Shown: positions 22,056 through 38,781, counted from the stretch's first letter. The stretch is 64,000 nucleotides of DNA from Polyangiales bacterium (GCA_049645265.1 JBARTN010000008.1:33036-97035), one strand, 5' to 3'. The notes: generated from the sequence alone by a model not told the origin. Made by a program: numbers and translations.

Positions 22056-22058
22056 CGC

Positions 22059-23033: not shown

Positions 23034-24112
23034 GACTCGTCGTCCTCAGCCCGGGCTCGCAGCCCGCCAAGGGATTGCGCTTGCTGCTCGCGAAGATGCC
23101 AAGGCTGCTCGGCGTAGACGTCGGTGAATATCTCGCTGAGCTCGGGCGCCGGTTTCTGCTCTGCACGCCGGACGCAATCTTTCACTTCCAGATCGCAGAC
23201 CGTGCGCCAGTCGCCGTCGAGGTCGTCATCCCAGACCTTTCGATGCTCGATGTGCTTGCGGAGCCTGAGGATGGGATCGGCTTTGCGCCAGGAGTCGACC
23301 TCTTTTTCGCTTCGATACATCCTCGGGTCGTCCGAGGTCGAATGGCCGCCGAGGCGATAGGTCAGGAGCTCGATGAACGTTGGCCCCCCGCCGTTCGCTG
23401 CGCGCTGCACGCCTTCTCGAACGGCCCCTAAGACCGCCAGCGCATCGTTGCCATCGACTCGTGCAGCTGGAACCCGGTACGCGGCCGCCTTTTCGGCCAG
23501 GGTGCGGGTCGCGGTTTGTCGCTCGACCGGCAAGCTGATCGCGTAGCCATTGTTGCGACAAAGGAAGAGAACCGGCGGCTGAAAGACGCCAGCGAAATTC
23601 ATCGCCGCGTGAAAGTCGTTCGAGCTCGTCGCCCCGTCGCCGAAGAAGACGCCGACGCATTCGTCAAGGCCGCGCTTTTTGGCCGCCATCGCCAGACCGA
23701 CGGCGTGGGGAATCTGCGTGCCGATCGGCGCGCTCACCGCGAGGTACCGATGCGACCGACTAAAGGTGTGGTCCGGCATCTGCCGGCCGTGTACCGGATC
23801 GCCCGCGTTCCCGTACATGTGGTCGAGGTATCGTTGCAATGGGTAGCCGCGCCAGAGCAGAGCGCCCACTTCGCGATAACAGGGTACGATCCAATCCCGG
23901 TTGCGAAGGGCGGCCGCAGAGCCGACGATTGCGGCCTCTTCGCCGAGCGAGCCCACGTGAAACGCGATGCGACCTTGCCGCTGAATCTTTTCGAGCCGGT
24001 CATCGACGATGCGGGTGCGAACCATCGCCTTGTACAGCGCGACGATCTCATCGATGGACAAGCCCGGGTCGAGCTTTGGATCGAGGCTTCCGTCGTCCCG
24101 AATGACCTGCAT
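23030..24112 (-). CDS. bkdA1: 2-oxoisovalerate dehydrogenase E1 alpha subunit (TPP-dependent)
   Basis: GRQMPDH, TPP motif FFGDGATSSNDFHAAMNFA, and YRLGGHSTSDDP. Overlaps the E1 beta start by 4 nt. Confidence 0.93.
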   Translation of the reverse strand: MQVIRDDGSLDPKLDPGLSIDEIVALYKAMVRTRIVDDRLEKIQRQGRIAFHVGSLGEEAAIVGSAAALRNRDWIVPCYREVGALLWRGYPLQRYLDHMYGNAGDPVHGRQMPDHTFSRSHRYLAVSAPIGTQIPHAVGLAMAAKKRGLDECVGVFFGDGATSSNDFHAAMNFAGVFQPPVLFLCRNNGYAISLPVERQTATRTLAEKAAAYRVPAARVDGNDALAVLGAVREGVQRAANGGGPTFIELLTYRLGGHSTSDDPRMYRSEKEVDSWRKADPILRLRKHIEHRKVWDDDLDGDWRTVCDLEVKDCVRRAEQKPAPELSEIFTDVYAEQPWHLREQQAQSLGGLRARAEDDES

Positions 24113-24119
24113 GTCCCCC

Positions 24120-25076
24120 TCAGCCGAGCACGTCCAGCTTTCGTTTCTTTCCGTAGCGATTCATTGCAGGCGCCGCTCCGTCATGCACCTCTGCGGCGAG
24201 CGTTCCCGTGAGAAAGACCTCCGCTGCGCGATAGCTCGAGCGAACGAGCGGCCCCGAGGCAACGAAGCGAAACCCCATGTCGAGCCCCACTTTCTCGTAG
24301 TCTTCAAACTCAGCTGGCTCGACGTAACGCTGCACCGAGGCGTGACGCTTGGTCGGCCTCAGGTACTGACCGATCGTGAGCACATCGACGTCCGCGTCGC
24401 GCAGAAGCTGCATGGCGCTGAGCACTTCGTCGCGCTCTTCGCCGAGGCCCACCATGAGCGAAGTCTTGACGATCGAAGCACCGAGCTCCTTCGCGGCGAC
24501 GAGCACATCGACCGAGCGCTCCCAGGAACAACGCACATCTCGAATGCTCCTTTGCAAACGCGGCACGACCTCCACGTTGTGCGCAAAGACATCCGGGCGC
24601 CCCTCCTGCACGACCACCCGAAGGTCGTCGTGTTGGCCTTGAAAATCTCCAACCAAGGTCTCGACGCGAAGCGCTGGGCTATGATGCCTGATGCGCCGAA
24701 CCGTCTTCGCGACGTGCGCGGCGCCGCCGTCCGCGAGGTCGTCGCGGTCGACCATCGTGAGCACGACATAGGCGAGCCCCATTTCGGCAAGCGAGATCGC
24801 CGTGTTCTCGGGCTCGTTCGAATCCACGGCGCCGCCGGGCTTCCCGGTCTGAACCGAACAGAAGCGGCAGCCCCGCGTGCAGGTCTCGCCGAGGATCATG
24901 ACGGTTGCGGTGCCCTGCCCCCAGCATTCGAAAATGTTCGGACAGCGGGCTTCCTCGCACACCGTGTGCAGCCCGCGAGCACGGAACCGGGACTTCAGGC
25001 CGTGGAATTGGTCCTGTTGCGGCCCCGCCGGGAGCCTCACGCGAAGCCAATCAGGTTTGCGAACAGGCAAGGTCAT
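24120..25076 (-). CDS. lipA: lipoyl synthase
   Basis: CEEARCPNIFECW auxiliary cluster motif and the radical-SAM motif CTRGCRFCSV. Confidence 0.95.
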   Translation of the reverse strand: MTLPVRKPDWLRVRLPAGPQQDQFHGLKSRFRARGLHTVCEEARCPNIFECWGQGTATVMILGETCTRGCRFCSVQTGKPGGAVDSNEPENTAISLAEMGLAYVVLTMVDRDDLADGGAAHVAKTVRRIRHHSPALRVETLVGDFQGQHDDLRVVVQEGRPDVFAHNVEVVPRLQRSIRDVRCSWERSVDVLVAAKELGASIVKTSLMVGLGEERDEVLSAMQLLRDADVDVLTIGQYLRPTKRHASVQRYVEPAEFEDYEKVGLDMGFRFVASGPLVRSSYRAAEVFLTGTLAAEVHDGAAPAMNRYGKKRKLDVLG

Positions 25077-25173
25077 CCAACGCTCCCATCGGTCCTAAGG
25101 CAAGCTTTTAGGGGGCGGCACCTCCCCTGTCAATCGCGTCTAACGCTACGAATTGTGGGGCTTTCTTCGGTCT

Positions 25174-25218
25174 GGCGCAATATTTCGATATCCCGGCCGG
25201 TTAGGCGCAATATTTTCG
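25174..25218. promoter_or_regulatory. two direct copies of GGCGCAATATTT(T)CG, a candidate operator pair in the lipA/TetR divergent region
   Basis: Copy 1 is at 25174-25187 and copy 2 at 25204-25218, offset by 30 bp. Each has an AATATT palindromic core. Confidence 0.35.
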
Positions 25219-25297
25219 TGTTTGACCCTTTACCTGGGTCCCACGTGCCCCATAATCCAGCATCGAAGCGGCTCGGTACCCGTTTAGGAGCGACTCG

Positions 25298-25963
25298 ATG
25301 GACGACGAAAGAAGGCCAAGGCGCGCTGGCCCCGTGGAGAGACCCGGTACTTTCGGTGGCAAGCGAGATCTCAACCGCCGCAAGCGCGTCCAAGACCTCA
25401 TCGACGCCGGCCTTTCGCTCTTTCTGCAGCGAGGGATCGAAGCGGTGACCATCGACGAAGTCGCTCGTGAAGCCGGCATGGCGAAGGGCAATTTCTACCG
25501 CTATTTCCGGGATAAAGCCGATCTGGTCGAGGCGGTGGTCTCGCCGGTCGCGGGCACCACGCGCGAAGCGATTCAGGACTGCGAGGCGCAACTCCGCCAA
25601 GCGAGTGATCGAAACGAAGCGGTCGCGGCATACGGACAACTGGGCAATCGCTTAGTCGGCGCGCTCGCCCTCTACCCGGACGCGATGTGCCTTTATCTTC
25701 AGGAGTGCCGAGCACCGGCGACGGTCGCGCGGCAGGCGATCTCCGACCTGGCGAACGAGCTCGACGACAGGGCGATGACCCTGAGCCAGGTCGCCGCGGA
25801 GCGGGGATTCGTGACGGTTTCCGATCCGCGTGTGAGCGCGCTCGCGGTCCTCGGGGCGGTCGAGGCGCTCGCCCTGGCTTCGGTGCGCAAACAAGTGCAG
25901 ATGGACCCCATCGAAACCACCAAGAGCCTGATTTCGATCGTGCTCGAAGGGCTGCGAAACTAG
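25298..25963 (+). CDS. TetR/AcrR-family transcriptional regulator
   Basis: N-terminal HTH VTIDEVAREAGMAKGNFYRYFRDKADLV. Confidence 0.9.
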   Translation: MDDERRPRRAGPVERPGTFGGKRDLNRRKRVQDLIDAGLSLFLQRGIEAVTIDEVAREAGMAKGNFYRYFRDKADLVEAVVSPVAGTTREAIQDCEAQLRQASDRNEAVAAYGQLGNRLVGALALYPDAMCLYLQECRAPATVARQAISDLANELDDRAMTLSQVAAERGFVTVSDPRVSALAVLGAVEALALASVRKQVQMDPIETTKSLISIVLEGLRN

Positions 25964-26039
25964 CCCCCCTGGGCCAGCTAAACAGCTGTCCAGCCCGAAA
26001 CTACCGTTGCGGGAGCTTCTTCTTCACAATTGAGCGGAT

Positions 26040-27380
26040 ATGGCGGGGAGGCTGATCTTGACCGCAGTGGCGCTCGTCTGGGCGACATTGCCCGGCGTCG
26101 CATATGCGGCGAGCGGATCCGGTGAGCCCGGGGTCGCGGGCGAGCTCGGCACGGTCGTCTTGCTCGTCTGCGTGATCGGCGTGGCGTACGTGCTCGCCCA
26201 CAACGTGGTGGAGCGTTTGCAACGTCGTTTCCTCGTCGTGAGCGGCGCCGAGTATCTCCTGCTCGGATTCCTGCTCGGTCCGGCCTTCCCTGCGATCCAC
26301 GCCTTCGATAACGTGACCGGCTTGCTACCGATCATCGCACTCGCGGCCGGTTGGGTCGGCCTGCTGCGGGGCACGGACTTCGACTTCACGAGTCTTCAAA
26401 AGCTCGACCCGGCGACGTGGCGCGTGGTCTTCCTGCATCACCTGCTGCCCGGCCTCGCCGTCGGATTCGGCGCGTACTACTTCTTCACCGTAGGTGGCTG
26501 GCTGGAGACGACGGCGCGCGGCGCAGCACTGAGCGCCGCAGCGCTGGCCTGCTTTGCGGCCGCAGATTCGACCGAACCGTTCGACCTCCTCGCTAGGCGC
26601 TACGAGATCAGCGGTCGGCTCGCTTCGCTGCTTCGAAACGGAACGCGCCTCGGCGACATCGCGGTCATCCTCGCCTTTGGCCTGATTTTTTGCGTGTTTC
26701 ACGAGAATGCGCCCGACGCGCAGGACTATTCGCCAGCCCTCTGGGCCTGGGTCACCATCTTGCTCGGCGCCGCGCTGGGCTTCCTGTTTTCGCTCTTCTT
26801 GGCAGGCGACGAATCGGACAACTCCCGCTTCTTGGCGCTGGTCGGAATCATCGCCTTCGCATCGGGCGGGGCATATTTTCTCGAGTTGTCGCCCTTGGCA
26901 GTCAATCTTTCGATGGGCTTCGTGCTGGTGAATTTCGCCCGCGGTGGCCAGCTCTTACACACGACGCTCGAATCGACCGAGCGCCCGATGGCGATCGTGC
27001 TGCTGGTCTTTGCCGGTGCGCTTTGGCAACCCACCCCGATCGTGCCGACTTTGGTCGCGCTCGCTGGTTTCCTGGCCGCACGCACCGGGGCGAAGTGGAT
27101 CGCAAGCCTGATCGCAGGCTGGGGGACCACGTTGCGAAGAGACTTGTTCCGCGGCCTCTTGGCACACGGCGACGTCACACTGGCGATGGCTGTCTCGTTT
27201 CGCCTCGTCTATGAAGGAGAGGCGGCGAACGTCGCGTACTCGGTGGTGCTGGGCTCGGTCATCATCAACGATCTAATCGCACCGCGACTGCTCCGGGGCT
27301 TGCTCGCAGACGAGGGTGAGATCCAGCGCGAGCTCAAGGACAGCGATTCCCAAACATCGATCGAGGTGAGTGCCAAATGA
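26040..27380 (+). CDS. cation:proton antiporter (Na+/H+ exchanger / CPA family) membrane protein
   Basis: Signal-like N-terminus, then about 11 TM helices. GAEYLLLGFLLGPAF is typical of Kef/NhaP-type exchangers. ATGA overlap with trkA. Confidence 0.8.
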   Translation: MAGRLILTAVALVWATLPGVAYAASGSGEPGVAGELGTVVLLVCVIGVAYVLAHNVVERLQRRFLVVSGAEYLLLGFLLGPAFPAIHAFDNVTGLLPIIALAAGWVGLLRGTDFDFTSLQKLDPATWRVVFLHHLLPGLAVGFGAYYFFTVGGWLETTARGAALSAAALACFAAADSTEPFDLLARRYEISGRLASLLRNGTRLGDIAVILAFGLIFCVFHENAPDAQDYSPALWAWVTILLGAALGFLFSLFLAGDESDNSRFLALVGIIAFASGGAYFLELSPLAVNLSMGFVLVNFARGGQLLHTTLESTERPMAIVLLVFAGALWQPTPIVPTLVALAGFLAARTGAKWIASLIAGWGTTLRRDLFRGLLAHGDVTLAMAVSFRLVYEGEAANVAYSVVLGSVIINDLIAPRLLRGLLADEGEIQRELKDSDSQTSIEVSAK

Positions 27381-28717
27381 ACATCGTCGTCATAGGTTTG
27401 GGCGAAGTCGGTCGTCACTTGTTGAGCGTCCTGGACAAAGAAGGTCACGACATCATCGCCGTCGATTCGAGCGCCAAGGCGGTGCAATACGCCGAGGAGC
27501 ACTACGACGTGGCATCGATCATCGGCTACGGCGCGAGCGAAACCTTGCTGAAGATCGCCGGCGTGGGTCGCGCCGACCTGGTCGTTGCCGTGACCAACCA
27601 CGATGAGATGAACCTGATCGCCGCGCTGGCGTCCAAGCAACTGGGCGCAAAGCACGTCGTCGCTCGCGTCCAAGGGACGGCCTGGTCCGAGTGGACTGAG
27701 GGCATCCGCTACGGCTTGCTCGGCGTCGACGTCGTGATCAATCCGCGTGTTCTCGTCGCGCAGGAGCTCAGCCGCATCGCCCGGTCTTACGGCGCCTCGG
27801 ACGTCGTCGACCTCGCACAAGATCGGGTCGAGCTCGTGCAGATCGACCTCGACGAATCCCGCGTGCTCAACAAGCCGCTTTCCGCGGTCGAGCTTCCGCC
27901 ACACACGCTGGTGAGCGCAGTGGTCCGTGACGGCGAGCTCTTCGTCCCTGGCGGCGCCGATGTGTTGGTCAAAGGCGACCGCGTGTATTTGATTGGTCGA
28001 CCGGAAGGCGTGCTTGCCGCGGAGCGACTCTTCAGCAAGGAACGCGAGGCGCGCCGGGTCTGCATCGTCGGTGGAGGCGTGGTCGGGAAGGCGCTCGCGC
28101 GCGACCTGCTGCAGCAACAGGCCACGGTCATGATGATCGAAAGCGATCTGGACGTCGCAGAAGAGATCAGCGCTGAGTTTCAGGCCATCGAAGTCGTGCA
28201 CGGCGACGGTACCGACGGGGCGCTTCTCGACGAGGAGGAGGTCGGCACCTACGACTTGTTCGCTGCGGTGACCAAGCAGGACGAAATCAATCTCATGGCA
28301 GCGCTCCTCGCTCAGCGCGCGGGCTGCAAGCGCACCGCCACGATCGTGCAGCGGGCCGACTACGCATCGATCTATCGTCAACTCGGCATTGACATCGTTC
28401 TGTCGCCTCGCACCGTGGCTTCGGACCAGATCCTTCGCTTCTCGCGAGGCGGCGGCCTTCACAGCTTGACCGTGCTCGAAGACGGCCAGGCTGAGGTCGT
28501 CGAGCTGACCGCAAGCGCGAAGTGCCGCGCCGTGAACAAGCCTCTGCACCGCATGAACCTGCCCCGCGGTTCGCTGCTGGCGGCGATCGTGCACGGCGAC
28601 GACGTGATCATTCCGCACGGCAAAGACGTCGTTCACCCGGGCGACCGCGTCATCCTGATGACCACCAAGGAAGCGCGCGCAACCGTCGAGCGGCTCTTTC
28701 GACCGAGGGGTGAGTGA
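27377..28717 (+). CDS. trkA: Trk system K+ uptake protein TrkA
   Basis: Duplicated RCK architecture with two Rossmann motifs, IVVIGLGEVGRHL and VCIVGGGVVGKAL. Confidence 0.93.
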   Translation: MNIVVIGLGEVGRHLLSVLDKEGHDIIAVDSSAKAVQYAEEHYDVASIIGYGASETLLKIAGVGRADLVVAVTNHDEMNLIAALASKQLGAKHVVARVQGTAWSEWTEGIRYGLLGVDVVINPRVLVAQELSRIARSYGASDVVDLAQDRVELVQIDLDESRVLNKPLSAVELPPHTLVSAVVRDGELFVPGGADVLVKGDRVYLIGRPEGVLAAERLFSKEREARRVCIVGGGVVGKALARDLLQQQATVMMIESDLDVAEEISAEFQAIEVVHGDGTDGALLDEEEVGTYDLFAAVTKQDEINLMAALLAQRAGCKRTATIVQRADYASIYRQLGIDIVLSPRTVASDQILRFSRGGGLHSLTVLEDGQAEVVELTASAKCRAVNKPLHRMNLPRGSLLAAIVHGDDVIIPHGKDVVHPGDRVILMTTKEARATVERLFRPRGE

Positions 28718-30204
28718 GCACGCAATCGAGAGACTTTCGCGGCGTGATCCGACCCGTCGGAGCCGTTGTTCTCGGGATCGGTGTGATGATCGCCCTTTGC
28801 GCTGGGGTTGGCATGCTCTGGGACCGGTTTGCGCCCGACCCGGGTCGGCCACAGGGCGGCGCTGCGGAGATGGCGCTCTCGGCGATCATCGTCTCGATCG
28901 TCGGCCTGGTAGCCTTTCTTTACGGAAATCGGTTCGTGTCGGAGCGAATCTCGCGTCGCGAGGCGCTCCTTGCCGTGAGCTTGATTTGGGTTGCCGCCGG
29001 GGCCTGCGGCGCGGTTCCATTCATCCTCGGAGCGGGAATGTCTGTTGACGATGCGTTCTTCGAATCGGTCAGCGGCCTGACGACCACCGGCGCAACGGTA
29101 ATCGCAGACATCGAAGGACGTTTGTCGCGGCCGCTCCTGCTCTGGCGTTCCCTGATTCAATGGCTCGGGGGCATGGGCATCGTCGTCCTGTTCGTCGCGG
29201 TCTTTCCGAATCTCGGCGCGGGCGGCAAGCATTTGTTTCGCGGAGAGGTGCCGGGAACCACATCCGAGGGCCTGAGACCTCGCATCGCTGAGACCTCATT
29301 CGCTCTTTGGAAGCTCTACGGCGCGCTCACCATCATCGAGATCGCCCTCCTCAAGATCCTCGGCCTCGATCTGTTCGACGCCGTCTGCCACGCGTTCACG
29401 ACGATGTCGACCGGTGGATTCTCGACACTCGACAGCTCGGTCGGCGGCTTCGATAGCGCCGCCGTCGAGTACGTGATCGCCTGCTTCATGCTGATAGGAA
29501 GCGTGAACTACGCGCTCTACTACGGCCTCTTGCGTACCGGCAACTGGCGGTCGCTCGTACGCAACATCGAGTTCCGCTGGTACGTCGCGATCGTCTTTGC
29601 GGCGGTCATCGTATTGACGATCTTGAACCTCAGCGTGCACGACGATCTTCTGACGTCGTTCCGCTACTCCTTTTTCATGGTGGCGACGACGGTCTCGTCG
29701 ACCGGATACGGCACCGACGACTCCAGCGTGTACAGCTCGACTGCGCTCACCATCGTGATCCTATTGATGTTCGTCGGGGGATGCTCCGGCTCGACAGCGG
29801 GCGGCATCAAGATCGAACGCGCCGTATTGATGGGCAAACAGGCGGTCGCGCAAATCCAGAAGAGCTTCCGGCCCGCCACGGTGCAGCTCGTTCGCATGGG
29901 GAGAGCAGCGATCAGCAATCAGGTTCTCTCTGACGTCGCTTCTTTCTTTCTGATTTACATGGGATGCATTGGATTTGGTTTGCTCTTCGTGACGCTCGTC
30001 GAAGGCGTGCCCGCACCCACGGCTTTCGGGGCGATGTTGACTTGCTTGTCCAACATGGGGCCCGCACCCTTTCACCTGGGGCCCGACAACTTCGCCGCGT
30101 ACTCGGCGGGTAGCAAATTGTTCTTCTCGATGGCCATGCTGCTCGGACGACTCGAGTTCTTCACCCTCTTCGCGCTCATCTTGCCAGGTTTCTGGAGGCG
30201 TTGA
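28714..30204 (+). CDS. trkH: Trk system K+ uptake protein TrkH
   Basis: Four pore-loop glycine motifs: GLTTTGA, TMSTGGF, SSTGYG and GSTAGG. GTGA overlap with trkA. Confidence 0.92.
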   Translation: MSTQSRDFRGVIRPVGAVVLGIGVMIALCAGVGMLWDRFAPDPGRPQGGAAEMALSAIIVSIVGLVAFLYGNRFVSERISRREALLAVSLIWVAAGACGAVPFILGAGMSVDDAFFESVSGLTTTGATVIADIEGRLSRPLLLWRSLIQWLGGMGIVVLFVAVFPNLGAGGKHLFRGEVPGTTSEGLRPRIAETSFALWKLYGALTIIEIALLKILGLDLFDAVCHAFTTMSTGGFSTLDSSVGGFDSAAVEYVIACFMLIGSVNYALYYGLLRTGNWRSLVRNIEFRWYVAIVFAAVIVLTILNLSVHDDLLTSFRYSFFMVATTVSSTGYGTDDSSVYSSTALTIVILLMFVGGCSGSTAGGIKIERAVLMGKQAVAQIQKSFRPATVQLVRMGRAAISNQVLSDVASFFLIYMGCIGFGLLFVTLVEGVPAPTAFGAMLTCLSNMGPAPFHLGPDNFAAYSAGSKLFFSMAMLLGRLEFFTLFALILPGFWRR

Positions 30205-33200
30205 TGACCGGCTCGTACAGCTTGCCACCGCCCGGCGAAGAGACCCACGCGCGGCGGCAGATCACCGTCATCGTGTTGCTGCTGTTTGGAATGGTGGCGC
30301 TCTACCAGTTCGAGCAGTTTGCCCAGCATCCCTTCGATCCGAGCGGGATGCTTGCGTTCGGATTCGTGGTCCTCGCGAGCTACACGATCGGCGGACTCGT
30401 TGGTCAGATCCGCTTGCCGCACATCACCGGATACCTGATCGCCGGTCTGGTCTTCGGCCCTTCACTGGCCAAGGTCCTGAGCGGCTTGGGCCTTCCGGCG
30501 CCGTTCGATCGAGGCATTCTCAATGACGAGGTGATCGAGCAGCTCAGCCTGTTCGACAACCTCGCCGTAGCGCTGATCGCGCTCACTGCAGGCGGCGAGC
30601 TCAAGCTCGAGGGACTCAAGAAGGGGCTCCGCGCGATCAGCTCGATCCTCGCTGCGCAGTTCGTGTCGATCGCGGTCCTCGTGACGGCGTTTTTCTGGCT
30701 GATCTCGGGTGCTGTCCCCTACATCGGCCTGCCCGGGGTCGCTGGGCTGCCCATGGCAGCGGCCCTCGCCGTAGGCGCAATGGTGGCCTCGGTGTCCTTG
30801 GCGACCTCTCCGGCCGCGACGATCGCCGTCATCATGGAGTCGAGGGCCGCGGGCTCAATGACCCGGGACGTTTTGTCCGTCGTCGTTCTGAAGGACGTGA
30901 TCGTCGTCGTGGCGTTCGCCGTCGCCCAGGTCATCGTGGCCCAGCAAGTCGGCATGGGCGCGCTGGAGAGCGGAATTGGGTCGTACCTGCTCCAGCACAT
31001 CGTCATCTCGATCCTCTTTGGAGCGGTGGTCGTGGGCGGCCTGATGGCGCTCTATATCCGTTACGTCAATCAGGAGCTGCTGATCTTCGTCGTCGGCGTG
31101 GTCTACCTCGTCGCCTTCATCTCCGACCAGCTCGGCTGGGATCCAGTGCTGGTCTTCCTCGCCGCCGGCTTCGGTGTTTCGAACTTCTCGAAGACGGGGC
31201 ATCGGCTCATCGAAACGGTCGAGCGCCTGTCGCTGCCGGTCTACGTCGTCTTCTTCACGCTCGCCGGCGCCAAGCTCCAGCTCGACCAGCTACGCCAGGT
31301 CGCTCTCTTCGCGATGGGGCTAGTCGCCGTCCGCGGGTTCGCGATCTATTCGGGGACCAAACTCGGCGCCCGCATCGGCAAGGCGGATGAGGCGACCCGC
31401 GACTTCGGCTGGATGGGCTTCGTATCCCAAGCTGGCGTGTCGATCTTGCTGGCGGCGATCATTGGCAGAGAGTTCGGTGAGCTCGGTCGCTCCCTCGAGA
31501 CCTTGATCATCGGCAGCGTTGCGATCAACGAGCTCGTCGGGCCGGTGATGTTCAAGCTCGGCCTTAGCCTCGCGGGCGAAACCCGGACGGGCCGCAAGTC
31601 GATCAGCCCGGCTAGGCACTTGTCGGTGCGGCCGCCTTCGATGCGACCCGAAGGAGAGGATGGCGCCGCCAAACGACTCGAGCCCTGGCCGGAGCACGTT
31701 GGCGCGAAGAACCTATGGGGCGATCCGCTGCAGCTGAAGAGTGCGGAGCTCAATAGTCGCACGCAGGACCTGGCTGGAGATCTGCAGAGCATCGTTCGTG
31801 AGGTCTCGACCGGACCTCTTCGAGATTTCCAGCTCGATGCCGGGAAGTACCTGCGAGACCTCCGACGCGAGTTCCTTCGCCATCACCGGCGCTTGACGGT
31901 TCAAGCCCGTGCCGAGGACCGCGCCGAACGCGACGAGCTGGTGACGCTGCTACGCTCCGCACAATCCGATTTGGCAGCGCATTGGCGCGGGATCGTACTC
32001 GGCCGGTCGGTCACGCTCGCCAAGCTCACTTGGACGCCCGAGACCATGCTCGAGAATGTGGATAGCCTCGTCGACGAGCTTCCGCTGGTCGTCGTGACGC
32101 CCTACGAAGACGCCAGCTACCAGAGCAAGGAAGGCGATTCGCTCTGGAAGCGGCTCCGGCGTGGTTTGCTTCGGCTGAGGCGAGGCTGGCGCAGGACCGT
32201 TGGGCAAAGCCCGCCGACCCGCGACGTTCGGCTGCGCGCTCTGGGACGTTTCCATCTTTCCTATGATGCGCCGGCTCGACTCGAGGCCCTCGCTGCGCTT
32301 TTCGTCGAAGCCGATCGGCACCTCGCGGCTCGCACGAGGAGTCTCTTCGACGGCGTGATCGCTGGGTACGATGACATCGTAGATATTTCGGTCAACCCCG
32401 AAGCCGACCTCGAAGGTCAGCTGGTTCGCCTTCGACACGACGTCGAAGAGGAGCTCGCTCTCGCGCTGGACGAAACGGTGCGAATCACGGGGGACGGCAC
32501 TCATCGCGCCGCCACCGCCCTTGCAACCGGTTTCGTCGGGTTGAAGGAAGACCTGCCGACGTTTGGAACCCTCGACCTGCGCACGAGCGAGCGACGCACG
32601 AGCCGCCGATTTGCGAACCGAATGCGAGCCATGGAGACGCTCACCAAGGACGTGTCCAACCTTCGGAAGGCAAGCTCGGCGGAATACTCGTCGCTGGCCA
32701 TGGAGCTCGAGCTGCTCGGCCTGGAAGCGCGCATCAAGGATAGCGTCACCGAGTACGCTCTCAGGCTCACCAATACGGTGCAGCGCCGGGCGATCTCTCA
32801 GGTCGAACGAGTGAGCGACACGCTTCATAAGGCGCTTGCCCGGCTGAACGAGGAGCTCGAGAGCGACTACTCCGGAGAGCAGCTGGCGGCCGCTCTTCGC
32901 ACGTCGACCGAAGCGACAAGCAAGGCCACCGGCGAAGCCGCGCGTGTGACGAACGAGCTCTACGAAGACTTGAGCGACGACACGAAGATCGCGCCTCTCC
33001 TCGATACCTTGGTCGACGCCTGCCGCGCACTGACGCCGCGCTACCGAGTGACCGTGGGTCAACGTCAAACCGGCGAGTGGCGCCTGCCGGCTGCGCTCCC
33101 CGAGGTCGAAGTCCCGTTCCGGGAGATCGTGCTCACGTACATCGACAGCCGAGTGGCCCCTAAGCTACTCGCGAGCCGGCAAGAGTTGGCCGAGCGCATC

Positions 33201-34718
33201 CAGCCACTGGCCAACCTGCTGCAAGAGTTGGAGCGCGTCGTGGCGTTCAACGTGGAGCTGGCAACAGCGGAGCTCGAAATCGTCCACGACGAAGCGGTCC
33301 CCGAAGAGATGCACACGTTGCTTCGCGAAATGGTCTACGGCCAGCTCGAACGCAGCTACAACTCGCTCGAGGAGATTCGCGCCGAAGCGAAGGGCTGGCC
33401 GGCGATCATCGAACACGAGATGCGTGACGCGGCGCTCGGAACGCTGGAAACGTTGCGCGGGGAGCTTGCCGAAGGCTCCTTCAGTAGGTCACGCCTCGAA
33501 GCGATGCGCCGCGCCGCGAGCGGGCTACGAATCATGAGCAAGGCGGAGCGATTGCCCCGAATGAAGCGGCTCAAGGCGCAGCTTCGGGGCGGTCTCCGTG
33601 CCTTGTTTGGCGAGGAACGGCTCGAGCGTTGGAGCGAGCGTCTTGGCCTGACCCAAGCATTGCCAACCGAGGCGTTGTCGGCCGGGGCCTTTGCAGCGCC
33701 CGACGTAGCGACCGAGCTACCGCTGGTCTACCGGCGCCTTTTCGCTGCGGACACCATGGAGGCCGGCGACGTGCTCACCGGCCGTGACCAGGAAATTCGC
33801 CGCGCGGAATCGGTACTATCGAGTGAGGTAAGAGGGCGCCTACGCTCCGTTGCGCTGATCGGTGTCGATGGCGTTGGAAAGGCGGCTGTGTCGAGCGCGA
33901 TCGTGCGAAGCAGGCGTTGGAAGAACGTGAAGCGCGTGGTCTTTACCGCGCCGGTGACGGTCGCAGATGTCGACGCGATCTTCCAAGACTCACCTGAAGG
34001 GCAGCTGGTCGTCGTCGACGGTCTCCACTGGATGCTGTCGATGGCTCCCGGAGGCTTCAACCCTCTTCGCCGCTTTGTAAAAGGCATCATCGAGGAGGGC
34101 GGGCGGCGGCGTTGGCTCGCGCATGGGGCCGTGCTCTTCTGGAACTTCGCCTCGACGGTGGCGCCGCTGCGGGACGCGTTCCCAGAGGTCGTCCGACTCG
34201 ATCCGTTGAGCGAGGAGGAACTGCAGGCCGCCGTGATCGCCAGGCATCGCTTGAGCGGTTTTGAACACTCCTTCGACCGCGGGGACGGCTCGCCGATCGA
34301 AGGCCTGTTCGCCCGGAGCGCCAGCCGGATTCGACGGCCCTACGATCAGTACTTCCACGAGCTCCACGAAGCCACCGGCGGCCTCGTGCGGGATGCGCTT
34401 CGGCTTTGGCTGGCTTCCATCCGAGGAATCCGGGACGACATCGTGCACGTCGGACCGATCCCGGCTTCTTCGTACACGCGGGTGAGGCGCCTTCCAGACG
34501 ACATCCTGGTCAACCTCTACCAGATCGCCCGCGAGGGCTGGATGGACGCCGCCGGCCAGGCGAGGTTATTCAGGCTGGACGTGAACACCGCACAGGCGCA
34601 GCTCAGCAGGCTCGCGCACCTGGGCTTGCTCGACGAAAGCGAGGGGGCGTTCGTGATCGCGGTACATTTGCGCGGCGTCCTGGGTCGCGTATTCGCAGAA
34701 CGGGGCTGGGTGCTGTGA
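30204..34718 (+). CDS. giant fusion protein: CPA2-type cation/H+ antiporter domain, about 700-aa helical region, ORC/STAND-like P-loop NTPase and a winged-helix-like tail
   Basis: Uninterrupted 1,504-codon ORF. The N-terminal TM domain carries HITGYLIAGLVFGPS. The C-terminal region has TGRDQEIRRAE, LIGVDGVGKAAV (nt 33861-33884), LVVVDGLHW (nt 34005-34031), VVRLDPLSEEEL and LSRLAHLGLLDE. The start could be ATG 30204 or TTG 30201; both overlap the trkH stop. Confidence 0.8.
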   Translation: MTGSYSLPPPGEETHARRQITVIVLLLFGMVALYQFEQFAQHPFDPSGMLAFGFVVLASYTIGGLVGQIRLPHITGYLIAGLVFGPSLAKVLSGLGLPAPFDRGILNDEVIEQLSLFDNLAVALIALTAGGELKLEGLKKGLRAISSILAAQFVSIAVLVTAFFWLISGAVPYIGLPGVAGLPMAAALAVGAMVASVSLATSPAATIAVIMESRAAGSMTRDVLSVVVLKDVIVVVAFAVAQVIVAQQVGMGALESGIGSYLLQHIVISILFGAVVVGGLMALYIRYVNQELLIFVVGVVYLVAFISDQLGWDPVLVFLAAGFGVSNFSKTGHRLIETVERLSLPVYVVFFTLAGAKLQLDQLRQVALFAMGLVAVRGFAIYSGTKLGARIGKADEATRDFGWMGFVSQAGVSILLAAIIGREFGELGRSLETLIIGSVAINELVGPVMFKLGLSLAGETRTGRKSISPARHLSVRPPSMRPEGEDGAAKRLEPWPEHVGAKNLWGDPLQLKSAELNSRTQDLAGDLQSIVREVSTGPLRDFQLDAGKYLRDLRREFLRHHRRLTVQARAEDRAERDELVTLLRSAQSDLAAHWRGIVLGRSVTLAKLTWTPETMLENVDSLVDELPLVVVTPYEDASYQSKEGDSLWKRLRRGLLRLRRGWRRTVGQSPPTRDVRLRALGRFHLSYDAPARLEALAALFVEADRHLAARTRSLFDGVIAGYDDIVDISVNPEADLEGQLVRLRHDVEEELALALDETVRITGDGTHRAATALATGFVGLKEDLPTFGTLDLRTSERRTSRRFANRMRAMETLTKDVSNLRKASSAEYSSLAMELELLGLEARIKDSVTEYALRLTNTVQRRAISQVERVSDTLHKALARLNEELESDYSGEQLAAALRTSTEATSKATGEAARVTNELYEDLSDDTKIAPLLDTLVDACRALTPRYRVTVGQRQTGEWRLPAALPEVEVPFREIVLTYIDSRVAPKLLASRQELAERIQPLANLLQELERVVAFNVELATAELEIVHDEAVPEEMHTLLREMVYGQLERSYNSLEEIRAEAKGWPAIIEHEMRDAALGTLETLRGELAEGSFSRSRLEAMRRAASGLRIMSKAERLPRMKRLKAQLRGGLRALFGEERLERWSERLGLTQALPTEALSAGAFAAPDVATELPLVYRRLFAADTMEAGDVLTGRDQEIRRAESVLSSEVRGRLRSVALIGVDGVGKAAVSSAIVRSRRWKNVKRVVFTAPVTVADVDAIFQDSPEGQLVVVDGLHWMLSMAPGGFNPLRRFVKGIIEEGGRRRWLAHGAVLFWNFASTVAPLRDAFPEVVRLDPLSEEELQAAVIARHRLSGFEHSFDRGDGSPIEGLFARSASRIRRPYDQYFHELHEATGGLVRDALRLWLASIRGIRDDIVHVGPIPASSYTRVRRLPDDILVNLYQIAREGWMDAAGQARLFRLDVNTAQAQLSRLAHLGLLDESEGAFVIAVHLRGVLGRVFAERGWVL

Positions 34719-35734
34719 TTTCGAATCTCCAATGCTCCAGCTTGTCGTTTCTGCTCATCGCCCTCATCGCGGCGCCGGGCGCAGCGCAGCCTCTCGACCG
34801 CACGAACGAAACGACCAGCCAGCCGGACACGCAAAACGAAGCGGCGCAGCAGGACGAAGCCTGGACCGAACCGCCTTCACAGGACCAGCCACGCTCGATT
34901 GCCAGGCGCGCATCGGATAGCGGTCAGGGCGAAGAGGCCCTCCCCGCAGGAGACCACAGCCCAGTGTGGACCCTAGTCCTCTGGTTGCTCGCCGTGGGCC
35001 TGGTCTTGTTCATCGCGGAGCGCGGTCGCAGTTGGATTACCCAAAACATTCCGCTGCGGCGTGCACTCGGCGCGCTGGTATTCGTTCTCCGCATCGCGGC
35101 CTTCTTTTTGCTGCTGGCGATCATTTTCCCCTTGGTCCCAACCGACCAACCTTGGATTCTCTGGACGCTGGCTGTCCTTGCGCTCGTCGTCGGTTGGTCC
35201 GTCCGAGATCTGTTCGCAGACCTGGTTGCCGGCGGAATACTCGCAGCCGAGCGCCGTGTGAAAAAGGGGATGTGGGTTTCCGGCGACGGCTTTCAAGGGA
35301 CGGTCGAAGGCCGGTCGCTCCGTGCGACCTGGCTGCGTGACGGACAGGGCCACCGTCTCACGGTGCCCAATCGCGCGATGGTCGGCGCGCCGATGGTGTA
35401 CGACGTTGGCGCGGATGCCGAGCACGAGGTGGTGGTGCGACTCGAAGGCTACCGGGACGCTGGCAAGGTGCGCATGGCTCTGGGCGACGCGATTCTCAGC
35501 TCCCCCTGGGTGCTCGCTGGTGCCACGCCGGTCGTTCTACGTGATCCCTCAGACCCAGTCGTCTGGCGTGTTCGAACGAAGCTGCTCGAGCCTCGCTTTT
35601 CGGTGCACTTCGAAGGTGAGTTGCTCGAGCGCGTCGAAGACTTGCTGCGCCACGAACCGCCGCTCGACGAGCGCGAGACCGCCCCGGTCCTCGTTGAGCC
35701 CGAGGCCGTGACCGATATCGAGATCGAAGATTGA
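34715..35734 (+). CDS. MscS-family mechanosensitive ion channel
   Basis: GTG start overlaps the upstream stop (GTGA). Signal-like N-terminus and three TM helices. The MscS beta-domain pattern is AGGILAAERRVKKGMWVSGDGFQGTVEGRSLRATWLRDGQGHRLTVPN. Confidence 0.75.
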   Translation: MISNLQCSSLSFLLIALIAAPGAAQPLDRTNETTSQPDTQNEAAQQDEAWTEPPSQDQPRSIARRASDSGQGEEALPAGDHSPVWTLVLWLLAVGLVLFIAERGRSWITQNIPLRRALGALVFVLRIAAFFLLLAIIFPLVPTDQPWILWTLAVLALVVGWSVRDLFADLVAGGILAAERRVKKGMWVSGDGFQGTVEGRSLRATWLRDGQGHRLTVPNRAMVGAPMVYDVGADAEHEVVVRLEGYRDAGKVRMALGDAILSSPWVLAGATPVVLRDPSDPVVWRVRTKLLEPRFSVHFEGELLERVEDLLRHEPPLDERETAPVLVEPEAVTDIEIED

Positions 35735-35745
35735 CGGAGAACGAA

Positions 35746-36786
35746 TCAAGCGATCCAATCGCGAAGCTCCCCGGTGACCACCCGCGGAGCCTGCTGAAGC
35801 TCTTCGATCGTCTTCGCGCCAGAGAGCAACATCACTGAACGCAGCTCGCGCTCGATGCGCTGCAAGAACGAGCGGGCGCCGTTCACGCCGCCTTCGAGGA
35901 AGGCTTGATAGACGTTGCGCGCGATTCCTGCGCAGCTTGCACCGAGGGCAATTGCGCGCGCGACGTCCATGCCGGTTCGGATGCCGCCGGTGGCGATCGT
36001 CGTCATTCCAGCCTCGACGCAGTATCGGACCGAGGCCGCAGTCGGAACACCCCAATCCCAGAGCGCCTCACCGAGGGCTCTGCCGTCGGCGTCCGCGCGC
36101 AAGGTCTCGACACCGACCCAGGAGGTGCCGCCCGCTCCCGAGGTATCCGCGTGACGAATGCCAATCGCCCGCAATCGGGCCGCTACCTCCCGGCTAATCC
36201 CACTGCCGGTTTCTTTGGCGATGACCGGAACGCCGAGCTCGGCCCAAAGACGCTGGAAGGTCTCGAGGCCTCTACTGAAGTCGCGATCGCCTTCGGGCTG
36301 AACGAGCTCCATGGCGGGGTTCATGTGCACACAGAGAGCGTCGGCACCGACCTCGGCCAGCATTTCGGCGATCACCTCGGTGGAGAGATCTCGTGCCTGA
36401 ACCACCCCGACGTTGCCAAAGAGCAGCGCATCGGGCGCATGCTTGCGCACCTGGTAGGTCCAACTCGTCTCCGGCCTTTGCTGCATGGCGCGCTGACTTC
36501 CCAAGCCAAACGCATAGCCGAGCTCGTCGGCGATCGACGCCAGGGCCTGGTTGATCTCGGCAGCGCGTGCATGGCCGCCGGTCATCGCAGCGATCAACAG
36601 TGGGGCGCGAAGCTCCTTCCCGAGCAATCGGACCCTGGTGTCGATCGAGTCGAAGCTGGTTTCGGGGAGCGACTGGTGAACGAGCCGAACGCATTCGAGA
36701 AGGGTCGTGCGCTGCCGAAACGCGACCTCGTCGGTCGCGCACAGATCGAGATGATCGGCCTTTCTCTTCTCAATGTCTGCGCTCAT
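35746..36786 (-). CDS. fni: type 2 (FMN-dependent) isopentenyl-diphosphate delta-isomerase
   Basis: KADHLDLC, LIAAMTGG, SGAGGTSW and ATGGIRTGMDVA. Start set at ATG 36786 (MSADIEKRK). Confidence 0.9.
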   Translation of the reverse strand: MSADIEKRKADHLDLCATDEVAFRQRTTLLECVRLVHQSLPETSFDSIDTRVRLLGKELRAPLLIAAMTGGHARAAEINQALASIADELGYAFGLGSQRAMQQRPETSWTYQVRKHAPDALLFGNVGVVQARDLSTEVIAEMLAEVGADALCVHMNPAMELVQPEGDRDFSRGLETFQRLWAELGVPVIAKETGSGISREVAARLRAIGIRHADTSGAGGTSWVGVETLRADADGRALGEALWDWGVPTAASVRYCVEAGMTTIATGGIRTGMDVARAIALGASCAGIARNVYQAFLEGGVNGARSFLQRIERELRSVMLLSGAKTIEELQQAPRVVTGELRDWIA

Positions 36787-36862
36787 CGCATCGCTTGCTC
36801 GGCGGCGTCCTGCCGTGTACGTAGCTCGGAATAAGGACACTGACACCGTGGCGCAAGGGCAA

Positions 36863-37885
36863 ATGGATCTCGAGTCTTGGATGGGAGGCATCCGCCAGCA
36901 GGTCGATGCCATCCTCGAACGGTTTTTCGAGTCGAAGTGCGAGGAAGCGAGGAAGCTTTCCCCTAAGGCGATCGAGCTGGTCTCGGAGGTTCGCGACCTC
37001 ACGATGCGCGGAGGAAAGCGCCTGAGGCCTATTGTGACGGCTGCTGCGTATGGGGCAGCAAGCGGAGCCAGTGACCTCGGCCCCACGTTCGAGGTCGGCG
37101 CGGCGCTCGAGCTACTGCAGACGTATCTGCTGATTCACGACGACTGGATGGACGAGGACCGCGAACGCCGCGGTGGACCCGCCGTCCACTACGCGTTCCA
37201 GAAGAAACACGGGCACGACCACCTCGGTGCAAGCCTCGGAATCCTCGCAGGCGACTTGGCTTCGACCTTTGGATGGGAGCTCTTGCTCGAGGGTCGCTTT
37301 CCAGAGGGAAGACGGGAGGAGGGCTTCTCACTCTTCGTGAGAATCCAAAAGGAAGTATTTGCCGGGCAGCAGCTCGACCTCATGACGTACGGGGACGTCG
37401 AGCGCATGCACGACTTGAAGACAGGGAGTTACACGACCCGCGGGCCCGCAGAGCTCGGAGGCATACTCGCCGACGCCGACGCGGCCGCTATGCGTGCGCT
37501 CCGTGACTGGTCGATGCCGCTCGGGGTCGCGTTTCAACTTCGCGATGACCTGCTCGGGACATTCGGAAGCGCGCGTCAGACGGGAAAGCCCGGCGACGAC
37601 CTGCGGCATGGGAAGCACAATGCCGTCGTCGCTGCGTTTCGTGGACTCGAGCCTAGCAACGCAGAGCAAGCCTTGCTGCAAGGCGTTTGGGGACGCGCCG
37701 ACGCAAGCGATGAAGAAATCGCGGGGGCGACGGAGGTGCTCTTTGAGGCAAAGGCCGAGGTCGAGGCGCGACTCGGCTTTCTTGCCAACGAGGCCCGGAG
37801 CGCGCTCGCTGCGAGCCCATTCGACGAACGAGGCAAGCGAATACTAGGAGAAGTCACGCGGCAGCTCACCAATCGGGGGAGCTGA
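36863..37885 (+). CDS. polyprenyl diphosphate synthase (FPP/GGPP synthase family)
   Basis: First Asp-rich motif LIHDDWMDED and second Asp-rich motif FQLRDDLLG. Start set at ATG 36863, because the track start at 36773 would overlap divergent fni. Confidence 0.88.
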   Translation: MDLESWMGGIRQQVDAILERFFESKCEEARKLSPKAIELVSEVRDLTMRGGKRLRPIVTAAAYGAASGASDLGPTFEVGAALELLQTYLLIHDDWMDEDRERRGGPAVHYAFQKKHGHDHLGASLGILAGDLASTFGWELLLEGRFPEGRREEGFSLFVRIQKEVFAGQQLDLMTYGDVERMHDLKTGSYTTRGPAELGGILADADAAAMRALRDWSMPLGVAFQLRDDLLGTFGSARQTGKPGDDLRHGKHNAVVAAFRGLEPSNAEQALLQGVWGRADASDEEIAGATEVLFEAKAEVEARLGFLANEARSALAASPFDERGKRILGEVTRQLTNRGS

Positions 37886-38781
37886 TGGGCTTCGGAAGAG
37901 GCAAGGTCATCCTGCTCGGCGAGCATGCGGTCGTTCATGGTTGTCCGGCGATCGCGGTCGGCATCGAACGGGGCGTCACCGCCGCGGCACGCCCGGCCGA
38001 GCGCGACATCTTGCGGCTCTCGCCCTGGGGCTTGGCGCTCGGGCCGGACCCCCTAGGAAGCGAGCCTCTGGAGCGCGCCTTTGCGGCAGTACTCGCGCTC
38101 TATCCAGAGCGTCCCGCACTCGAGGTGAGCGCCGAGGTCGAGCTTCCGGCCGGAGCTGGGCTCGGCTGTTCCGCTGCGATCGGCGTGGCCGTGCTCGACG
38201 CAATCGATGAGGCTCTGAGCATCAAACGCTCTCGAACGGAGCTGGCAGAGGCGGCGCTCGTCTGGGAGAGGATCTTCCACGGGAATCCGTCGGGGATCGA
38301 CAACGCAATGTCGGCGGTCGGCGGTGTCGCGCTCTATCGCAAAGGGGATCCGCTTCGGCCGCTGCGCTCGAACAAGCCGCTTCATTTGGTGATCGGCTAC
38401 AGCGGCGAGTCCTCCAGCACCAAAGAGATGGTCGCGTCGGTGGCGCGGCAGCTCGAAACCGACCCCGGGCGCGTGAACAAGGCCTTCGAAGCGATCGAGG
38501 TGTTGGTGCGCAACGCGAAGCTCGCGATCGAGGCCGGTGATCACATCGCGCTTGGGCAACTGCTCGATCTGAATCACAGCATCCTCAGCTCCCTGATGCT
38601 CTGCACGAGCAAGCTGGACGAAATGTGTCAGGCCGCGAGGGCGTCGGGAGCCTTGGGCGCGAAAATGACGGGCGCAGGAGGTGGAGGCTGCATGTTTGCG
38701 CTCGCACCCAAGCAGGACCAAGCGCTGCGCCTTTGCGAGGTGCTCGGACCAGGCGCGTTCGTGGCGGAGGTGAGCACGTGA
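37885..38781 (+). CDS. mvk: mevalonate kinase
   Basis: GKVILLGEHAVVHG and the GHMP motif PAGAGLGCSAA. Confidence 0.9.
   Translation: MGFGRGKVILLGEHAVVHGCPAIAVGIERGVTAAARPAERDILRLSPWGLALGPDPLGSEPLERAFAAVLALYPERPALEVSAEVELPAGAGLGCSAAIGVAVLDAIDEALSIKRSRTELAEAALVWERIFHGNPSGIDNAMSAVGGVALYRKGDPLRPLRSNKPLHLVIGYSGESSSTKEMVASVARQLETDPGRVNKAFEAIEVLVRNAKLAIEAGDHIALGQLLDLNHSILSSLMLCTSKLDEMCQAARASGALGAKMTGAGGGGCMFALAPKQDQALRLCEVLGPGAFVAEVST

Follow-up and report, generated by a model that had tools for sequence, protein, structure and literature searches.

Why should genes for K+ uptake, cation/proton exchange and mechanosensitive release be packed into a single uninterrupted block? Research has dealt with Trk and Kef-type systems one by one, and an MscS-type channel is usually regarded as sensing membrane tension on its own. 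The question is raised by a 64,000-nt stretch of DNA from a Polyangiales bacterium (GCA_049645265.1, JBARTN010000008.1:33036-97035; hereafter the window), in which five genes follow one another on the plus strand: gene 1 (g1, 26040-27380, 446 aa), trkA (27377-28717, 446 aa), trkH (28714-30204, 496 aa, GTG start), a giant gene (30204-34718, 1504 aa) and a gene for an MscS-like channel (g5, 34715-35734, 339 aa, GTG start). The list of open reading frames (ORFs) and the junction sequences gave overlaps of ATGA between g1 and trkA (27377-27380), GTGA between trkA and trkH (28714-28717), TGATG between trkH and the giant gene (30202-30206) and GTGA between the giant gene and g5 (34715-34718), each with a purine-rich, Shine-Dalgarno-like stretch just 5' of it. 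The first-pass annotation of the window had described five plus-strand genes without intergenic space, which we reproduced in all coordinates and all four overlaps. As it had also noted, the recognisable parts are all ion-flux proteins: TrkA, TrkH, two domains of the cation/proton antiporter (CPA) fold and an MscS-family channel. From the overlaps and the layout we predict that the five genes probably share one transcript.

The answer suggested by comparison of loci is that the block grew around its 3' end. Its evolutionary core is an AAA-like module, which forms the C-terminal part of the giant protein, together with the MscS-like channel. Other bacteria, and archaea too, have the two side by side where Trk, CPA and a TetR gene are absent, and the CPA domains, TrkAH and TetR are lineage-specific additions. 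We lean, if only modestly, towards reading the operon as a co-transcribed, translationally coupled unit of cation (mainly K+) and turgor homeostasis, elaborated from the AAA-like/MscS-like pair, in which the AAA-like module would be the cytoplasmic partner of the channel.

Homologous loci were collected by scanning one genome per species, which yielded 80 loci onto which the six window proteins (TetR and the five) were mapped by tblastn; nearly all carriers are metagenome-assembled genomes (MAGs). Polyangiales, Sandaracinaceae and other Myxococcota MAGs commonly encode a full-length giant homologue of about 1500 aa. The order g1, trkA, trkH, giant, MscS-like was found at 51 of the 53 species-level Polyangiales and Sandaracinaceae loci with both flanks, with the giant 38-93% identical. 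g1, TrkA and TrkH lie upstream of the giant gene at 65 of 68 loci with enough upstream flank, and an MscS-like gene lies downstream at 59 of 60 Myxococcota loci. Exceptions to the order were L081 and L062, which lack TrkH, and L065, with the giant alone. About 30 species-level genomes with a giant 80-93% identical share the 4-nt and 1-nt overlaps, so those of the window are not due to chance, and at no locus does the g1/trkA junction fall outside -4 to +25 nt. A metagenome contig (L087) also carries the complete order; its CPA domain shares 72% identity with a protein labelled Blastocatellia. On this identity the contig is probably acidobacterial, and since it holds all five genes, the arrangement is probably not confined to Myxococcota. 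Conservation of the order in relatives, proposed at the outset as a check on the five-gene unit, was thus found both in the close clade and in a distant lineage.

The giant protein consists of a CPA domain in the membrane, some 600 aa of charged helical sequence and an AAA+/winged-helix module resembling those of Orc1 and RuvB. It had been put forward as an antiporter fusion, a description that does not hold for most of its length: there is one CPA domain, and the remaining ~1000 aa are not transporter-like. Residues 470-1504 were modelled with AlphaFold2 (AF2) from a 21-sequence alignment, with a mean predicted local distance difference test score (pLDDT) of 81.9. The all-helical region (aa 514-1114, 31743-33545, plus strand) has 30% charged residues and a conserved motif, YLRDLRREFLRHHRRL, and was predicted as helices of 30-85 residues with pLDDT mostly 85-95. 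It had no PDB sequence match, no Pfam match was found within aa 470-1100, and the fold search returned non-specific long-helix proteins only (a flagellar doublet protein, dynein). The same region also occurs in free-standing homologues of ~1000 aa. A region so highly charged could, speculatively, respond to ionic strength.

The AAA-like module (aa 1174-1504, 33723-34715, plus strand) comprises an AAA+-like base, a lid and a winged helix, modelled at pLDDT 80-93. In Foldseek its top match was DNA-bound Orc1 (2v1u_A, E 5e-6), followed by RuvB (E 1e-5 to 1e-3), Hda and Cdc6, at a probability of 1.00. By sequence it gave a weak AAA_16 match, with no Pfam or NCBIfam model reaching its cut-off; no Pfam, NCBIfam or PADLOC model covers the module, and no solved structure matches it by sequence, a PDB search with the C-terminal profile returning only weak Clp/Hsp104 P-loop matches. 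The predicted fold and domain order are those of Orc1/Cdc6 and RuvB (AAA_16), and a GR..E helix precedes the P-loop here; PL.DAFPE resembles the RuvB motif PLRDRFG and G.LVRDAL a sensor-2 region. In contrast to these proteins, the close clade mostly lacks the Ser/Thr of Walker A, lacks the Glu of Walker B and probably also the arginine finger, and the genes around the module serve ion transport rather than replication or recombination.

This loss of motifs was followed by reading the catalytic columns across 31 giant orthologues. Walker A, which is GVDGVGKA in the window (33861-33884), reads GxDGVGK[A/G/S/V], with the Lys mostly kept and the Ser/Thr absent in most; the motif is lost altogether in L081. 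Walker B reads hhhh[D/S/E/T/R]G, with a near-invariant Gly at the place of the expected catalytic Glu. At the position that matches the RuvB finger by motif, an equivalence that rests on the RuvB motif PLRDRFG, nearly all sequences have the Ala of ..DAFPE. As the catalytic motifs are degenerate across these orthologues, the AAA-like module of the close clade is unlikely to hydrolyse ATP. A C-terminal HLRG...RGW motif is conserved in the giant. Together with the DNA-bound Orc1 as top structural match and the well-predicted C-terminal winged helix, this motif would suit a membrane-anchored DNA-binding regulator, or 'transceptor', whose CPA domain senses ion flux and whose Orc1-like winged helix controls transcription by binding DNA. 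We regard such a role as very unlikely: the soluble module pairs with an MscS-like gene and not with target promoters, it can sit between CPA and channel domains in one polypeptide, winged helices of AAA+ proteins often bind protein, and a separate TetR regulator is already present.

How far the pairing of module and channel extends was seen in a search of 1.84 billion representative proteins with a profile of the C-terminal 1035 aa of the giant. It recovered 264 clusters (50% identity) at E <= 1e-30, many of them free-standing proteins of ~1000 aa; sampled members are labelled 'hypothetical protein', 'ATP-binding protein' or 'cation:proton antiporter'. In nearly every sampled context the AAA-like module lies directly 5' of an MscS-like gene, where contexts outside Myxococcota amount to a sample of about 20 loci and not a census. 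The pair was seen in Myxococcota, Acidobacteriota, Methanothrix, Methanoperedens, Bathyarchaeia and Desulfobacteria. Its surroundings vary. On the contig of P0149 and at L083 the genes run TrkA-TrkH-module-MscS with 4-nt overlaps and no CPA gene. A low-GC organism (L084) has a free-standing 1103-aa module with a GSGKTS Walker A, 22% identical to the window giant over 911 aa (E 2e-45), followed directly by an MscS-like gene. In Blastocatellia (Acidobacteriota; L085/L086) a 1552-aa CPA-module fusion precedes an MscS-like gene, without Trk and without g1. A YceI-family gene lies a few genes 3' of the pair in two unrelated organisms (P0149 contig, 8321-8965; L084, 14117-14818).

A metagenome scan seeded with a distant-clade sub-alignment added 10 further loci, among which L088, L089, L090, L094 and L096 have an AAA-like gene and then, directly, an MscS-like gene. 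At L096 the pair is minimal: its AAA-like/winged-helix protein has 334 aa and its channel 279 aa. The minimal protein has 86 homologues of ~330-345 aa, in Methanothrix, Methanocrinis, Methanoperedens, Methanophagales, Methanosarcinaceae, Bathyarchaeia and one Desulfobacteria MAG; the named ones are all 'hypothetical protein', and none has a Pfam domain. Profile alignment with hhalign placed this archaeal ~330-aa family on aa ~1186-1490 of the giant (probability 98.1%, E 7.8e-14, 286 columns), and in four of four further contexts (Methanothrix, Methanoperedens, Desulfobacteria and Bathyarchaeia) the MscS-like gene starts 1-2 nt after the minimal AAA-like gene. The module, the giant, g1, the distant relative P0262 and the archaeal proteins belong to no NCBIfam family. 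The minimal pair, too, has genes for ion transporters as neighbours (CorA, CNNM/CBS, P-type cation ATPase and Na_Ca_ex), and a second MscS-like gene, in tandem or divergent, often lies beside it (L101/L102, 3396-5253; L103/L104, 5031-6830; L096, 6521-7477; L099, 2982-3851). At L091 (1296-5206) and L093 (195-3904) a plus-strand AAA-like gene faces two minus-strand genes, first one for an MscS-like channel and then another AAA-like gene; with two AAA-like genes converging on a single MscS-like gene, one AAA-like copy there is without its own channel gene.

The catalytic motifs have fared differently along this family. The archaeal Walker A is degenerate (EPFAGRTT), whereas a canonical one (GSGKTS or GVGKST) is present in the distant P0262, P0266, P0268/P0270 and P0153, and Walker B is an acidic LED in P0266 and P0268/P0270 and LES in P0262. 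Since the Myxococcota and the archaeal clades have lost residues that distant members kept, ATPase motifs were apparently lost more than once. These observations bear on another explanation of the pair, in which the AAA-like protein is a chaperone for assembly or membrane insertion of its cognate MscS-like oligomer, acts in biogenesis only, and Trk and CPA proteins are merely co-expressed. Remodelling or assembly of complexes is a frequent task of AAA+ folds, gaps of 1-2 nt make the pairing tight, and some relatives have a canonical Walker A. An energy-dependent chaperone is nevertheless a poor fit to the motif loss in the Myxococcota and archaeal (EPFAGRTT) clades, and a module permanently fused to a CPA domain, or in P0252 to the channel itself, speaks for an association that lasts; we consider this explanation quite unlikely.

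The pair has the architecture of a sensor NTPase joined to a membrane effector, and distant relatives weakly match AAA_16, AAA_22 and nSTAND1. Such a layout would suit abortive infection. The pair might accordingly be an anti-phage system, in which a STAND/AAA_16-like sensor opens the channel and kills or arrests the infected cell. At E <= 0.01, however, PADLOC matched none of g1, the giant, g5, P0262 and the free-standing P0233, the genes hold a conserved chromosomal position beside housekeeping genes in dozens of species, their context is consistently one of K+ and cation transport, and the NTPase motifs are degenerate. A defence role thus appears highly improbable.

Module and channel are also joined in a single polypeptide. 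P0252 (JGI 3300048101, an 18-kb contig) is a 1641-aa protein of CPA, helical, AAA-like/winged-helix and MscS-like parts, in effect a Rosetta-stone fusion of giant and channel. A g1-like gene lies before it and overlaps it, and Trk genes are absent. Two hydrophobic segments lie between its winged helix and its beta domain, a linker that keeps both ends cytoplasmic, as topology requires if both ends are cytoplasmic. A second candidate fusion, P0145 (2083 aa), was rejected, as the sequence at its AAA-like/MscS-like junction looks like out-of-frame read-through. Such proteins also bear on whether the five genes encode independent transporters that share an operon without physical or regulatory coupling. 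TrkAH, CPA and MscS proteins are each known to work alone elsewhere, and variants lacking one or more parts exist; but order and overlaps persist where identity has dropped to 38% and are found again in a second lineage, both CPA-module and module-channel fusions exist, and adjacency of module and channel spans Bacteria and Archaea. We therefore hold independence to be unlikely and continue with a coupled unit built on the module and its channel.

Two CPA antiporter-type proteins had been proposed for the block. The fold itself was borne out in the giant within aa 1-469 (30204-31610, plus strand), while g1 is CPA-like by profile comparison only; about two thirds of the giant is not an antiporter. 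The giant domain was assigned by Pfam (Na_H_Exchanger at aa 59-450, 81.1 bits, cut-off 26.2), AF2 (pLDDT 76, predicted TM-score 0.76) and Foldseek, in which the model matched SOS1, NHA2, SLC9C1, MjNhaP1, NapA and KefC at E 7e-10 to 7e-7, with TM-scores of 0.58-0.66 by query and up to 0.78 by target. A PDB sequence-profile search with this domain returned nothing even at E <= 10, and with g1 alone a chance match only. g1 is a polytopic membrane protein without a cytoplasmic regulatory domain and has no Pfam and no NCBIfam match. It aligns with the N-terminus of the giant by BLASTP (27% identity over 205 aa, E 3e-9); hhalign paired its family profile with the giant CPA domain (probability 99.2%, E 5.8e-20, 395 columns), and a partial g1-like ORF at the edge of L087 matches Na_H_Exchanger at 44.3 bits, above the Pfam cut-off. 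On the strength of the profile alignment and the L087 match, we interpret g1 as a divergent, domain-less CPA-fold paralogue of the giant N-terminal domain. D231 is near-invariant and R377 invariant in the giant, and D206 and R348 are invariant in g1; from their position in CPA motifs, we tentatively take the Asp residues to be the ion-binding ones of transmembrane segment (TM) 5 and the Arg residues to be the basic residue of TM10.

Among known exchangers, the Kef K+/H+ systems (KefC/KefB with KefF/KefG) and CPA2 systems of the KhtTU type, which have RCK regulators, are close in plan. As in these, a CPA-fold membrane domain is linked to a cytoplasmic regulatory part in the giant, an RCK protein (TrkA) is encoded beside a domain-less CPA paralogue (g1), and KefC (8bxg) is among the structural matches of the giant CPA domain (E 2e-7). 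The TM5-type motif differs, being VLKD in the giant and RLGD in g1, that is K-D and G-D, against Q-D in KefC and D-D in other CPA2 members. Pfam found no TrkA_N/TrkA_C (KTN/RCK) match in g1 or the giant, whose tail is helical plus AAA-like/winged helix, and there is no KefF/G-like gene here; membership of the Kef type fails because no KTN/RCK domain is present in cis. The eukaryotic exchangers SOS1 and SLC9C1, the best structural matches of the giant membrane domain (8jd9, 7y3e, 8otx), likewise combine an exchanger with a long regulatory cytosolic extension. Their extensions, however, are CNBD-like and autoinhibitory or carry a voltage sensor, unlike the helical and AAA-like/winged-helix tail of the giant, and the resemblance is best taken as analogy, not as family membership.

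The two Trk genes are more conventional. The TrkA protein has two RCK units (TrkA_N plus TrkA_C, twice; 155 and 84.6 bits in Pfam) and scores 428.4 bits with NCBIfam NF007039 (cut-off 293). The TrkH protein, whose gene is joined to trkA by the GTGA overlap, matches Pfam TrkH at 167.7 bits (cut-off 27) and falls below the NCBIfam TrkH cut-offs (equivalog 311 against 866, subfamily 275.8 against 331), so that orthology to Escherichia coli TrkH is not established. Adjacent, overlapping trkA and trkH genes, tandem RCK units and a TrkH domain are shared with the Trk systems of Vibrio parahaemolyticus and E. coli; the place of the pair between two CPA-fold proteins in a five-gene coupled block is not, and the TrkA-TrkH-module-MscS form exists besides. 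We know of no described Trk system with CPA-fold, AAA-like or MscS-like partners, and no description of one was found in openly searchable literature.

g5 has a signal-peptide-like N-terminus, an acidic, Q-rich stretch, about three TM segments (hydrophobic at aa 81-105, 114-149 and 148-172 in the hydropathy profile) and a beta domain at 35207-35386. Pfam MS_channel_2nd matched at 39.4 bits (cut-off 20.2). The MscS beta domain, a TM3b-like G..R/QD...L.AG motif and the N-out three-TM layout suggested by hydropathy are shared with MscS, MscK (KefA) and MscM. In contrast to these channels, g5 lies far under every NCBIfam equivalog cut-off (MscK 33.6 against 991, MscM 24.7 against 809, MscS 20.8 against 321), its C-terminal domain is unrecognised, and its subfamily is consistently encoded directly after an AAA-like/winged-helix gene; to our knowledge, no characterised MscS channel has such a partner. 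The partner channels at L083 (36% identity, E 2e-27) and L084 (24% over 364 aa, E 4e-10) are recognisable homologues. An upstream TTG at 34406 was dismissed as a start for g5, being an artefact of high G+C content; homologues align from the GTG at 34715, and the GTG starts of trkH and g5 are backed by homologues that align from residue 1.

A TetR-family gene (25298-25963, plus strand, 221 aa; TetR_N 64.5 bits, Pfam cut-off 24) lies 76 nt 5' of g1 on the same strand, in agreement with the first-pass annotation. Its standing as part of the cluster is confined to the close clade: it is present upstream, on the same strand, at all 41 loci whose giant is at least 59% identical, and at one of 27 more distant loci. 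A consensus scan of 24800-36400 found a single sigma-70-like site, 5' of the TetR gene (TTTACC-16 nt-CATAAT, 25229-25256, plus strand), whose CTTTAC and CCCCATA are kept in an alignment of 40 related loci. Just 5' of the -35-like hexamer, two 18-nt direct repeats, CGGT(C/T)(T/A)GGCGCAATATTT, lie 30 nt apart (25168-25185 and 25198-25215, plus strand; CGGTnnGGCGCAATATTT), each with an AATATT palindromic core, and form a candidate operator. A 12-mer of the repeats has two matches against 0.08 expected by chance, and the repeat core is conserved across the same 40 loci. A TetR-type repressor acting at these repeats by its own promoter probably sets operon expression in the close clade.

Internal promoters or terminators that would separate the five genes had been named as a point to check. 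The same consensus scan gave no sigma-70-like promoter inside the block, and the 12 terminator-like sites are not above the 9.0 +/- 3.7 expected from shuffled sequence. Searched with Rfam for riboswitches, for instance a c-di-AMP element ahead of K+ transporters, 24800-36200 gave no match at E <= 1. The 76-nt spacer between TetR and g1 (25964-26039, plus strand) is conserved in parts almost base for base, with blocks CTAAACA..TGTCCAGC..GAAACTACCG..CTTCTTCTTCACAAT and a palindrome at 25977-25994, and could hold an internal promoter, an operator or the context of a ribosome-binding site.

Put together, these parts suggest how a homeostasis unit of this composition might work. TrkA and TrkH would take up K+, the giant CPA-fold domain and g1 would exchange K+ or Na+ for H+, and the MscS-like channel would release solutes. 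CPA exchangers work as dimers. Given this, and as g1 nearly always accompanies the fused CPA domain, g1 and the giant domain may form a heterodimer. The helical and AAA-like/winged-helix part would serve as a cytoplasmic regulator or scaffold and as dedicated partner of the MscS-like channel, a role proposed because the module is nearly always beside the channel gene and can be fused to either type of transporter; in the giant it would also tether the channel physically to the exchanger. Since the catalytic residues are lost here and in archaea while some relatives keep them, its action would be expected to rest on binding or on conformation rather than on motor activity.

Several observations weigh against this account. 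Junctions that overlap in the window open to tens or hundreds of nucleotides in distant relatives, so strict translational coupling is clade-specific, and TrkH, g1 or the Trk genes are missing in variants (L081, L062, L065, L085/L086), so the parts are not obligatorily interdependent. The conserved spacer between TetR and g1 could contain a promoter of its own, and the promoter and terminator evidence consists of consensus scans. An unusual residue precedes the conserved Asp in both CPA-fold proteins (Lys in the giant, Gly in g1), and ion specificity is unreadable from sequence. P0262 and P0270 keep the canonical Walker A GSGKTS; because distant relatives do so, the AAA-like module may be an active NTPase elsewhere and its role may differ there. 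Every function in the account, finally, is assigned from homology and gene order.

TrkAH, CPA exchangers and MscS are known kinds of protein; the pairing of an AAA-like protein with an MscS-like channel is the undescribed part, and the one that would surprise specialists. The composition of the block had not been recognised as described, and we too found no account of it, nor of a CPA-AAA fusion or an AAA/MscS pair, in the searchable literature, subscription-only papers lying outside its scope. Tentatively, and with somewhat less assurance than for the operon itself, we propose that the AAA-like/winged-helix family, with 330-aa members in methanogens at one end and the C-terminal thirds of 1500-aa CPA fusions at the other, is a dedicated cytoplasmic partner of an MscS-like subfamily across Bacteria and Archaea, and that it gates or tunes these channels and, in Polyangiales and some Acidobacteriota, is hard-wired to an exchanger and co-expressed with Trk. 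If so, the channels would not be autonomous tension sensors but would follow a cytoplasmic sensor answering to nucleotide, ionic strength or another signal, and Polyangiales and some Acidobacteriota would use one machine to keep K+ uptake, K+/H+ exchange and emergency release in balance. Retention of the pair from methanogenic archaea to myxobacteria suggests an unexamined layer of channel control, a suggestion strengthened by the recurrent fusion or co-operonic link to K+ uptake and cation/proton exchange. Several hundred unnamed clusters would gain names and testable partners, and the archaeal pair, a 330-aa protein and a 270-aa channel, is small and tractable for structural and electrophysiological work.

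TetR and the five genes form a six-gene block that is flanked on both sides by minus-strand genes. Upstream (20841-25076, minus strand) lie housekeeping genes for 2-oxoacid dehydrogenase E1 alpha, E1 beta and E2 and for lipoyl synthase, and the L002 cluster has the same upstream housekeeping neighbours. Downstream (35746-38781) are genes for an FMN-dependent dehydrogenase (minus strand), a polyprenyl synthetase and a GHMP kinase, that is, isoprenoid or mevalonate genes. Long antisense ORFs within the block, for example 27209-28852 on the minus strand, were set aside as high-GC artefacts. Between 54000 and 58000 the G+C content of the window falls to 0.59, against 0.62-0.67 elsewhere in it.

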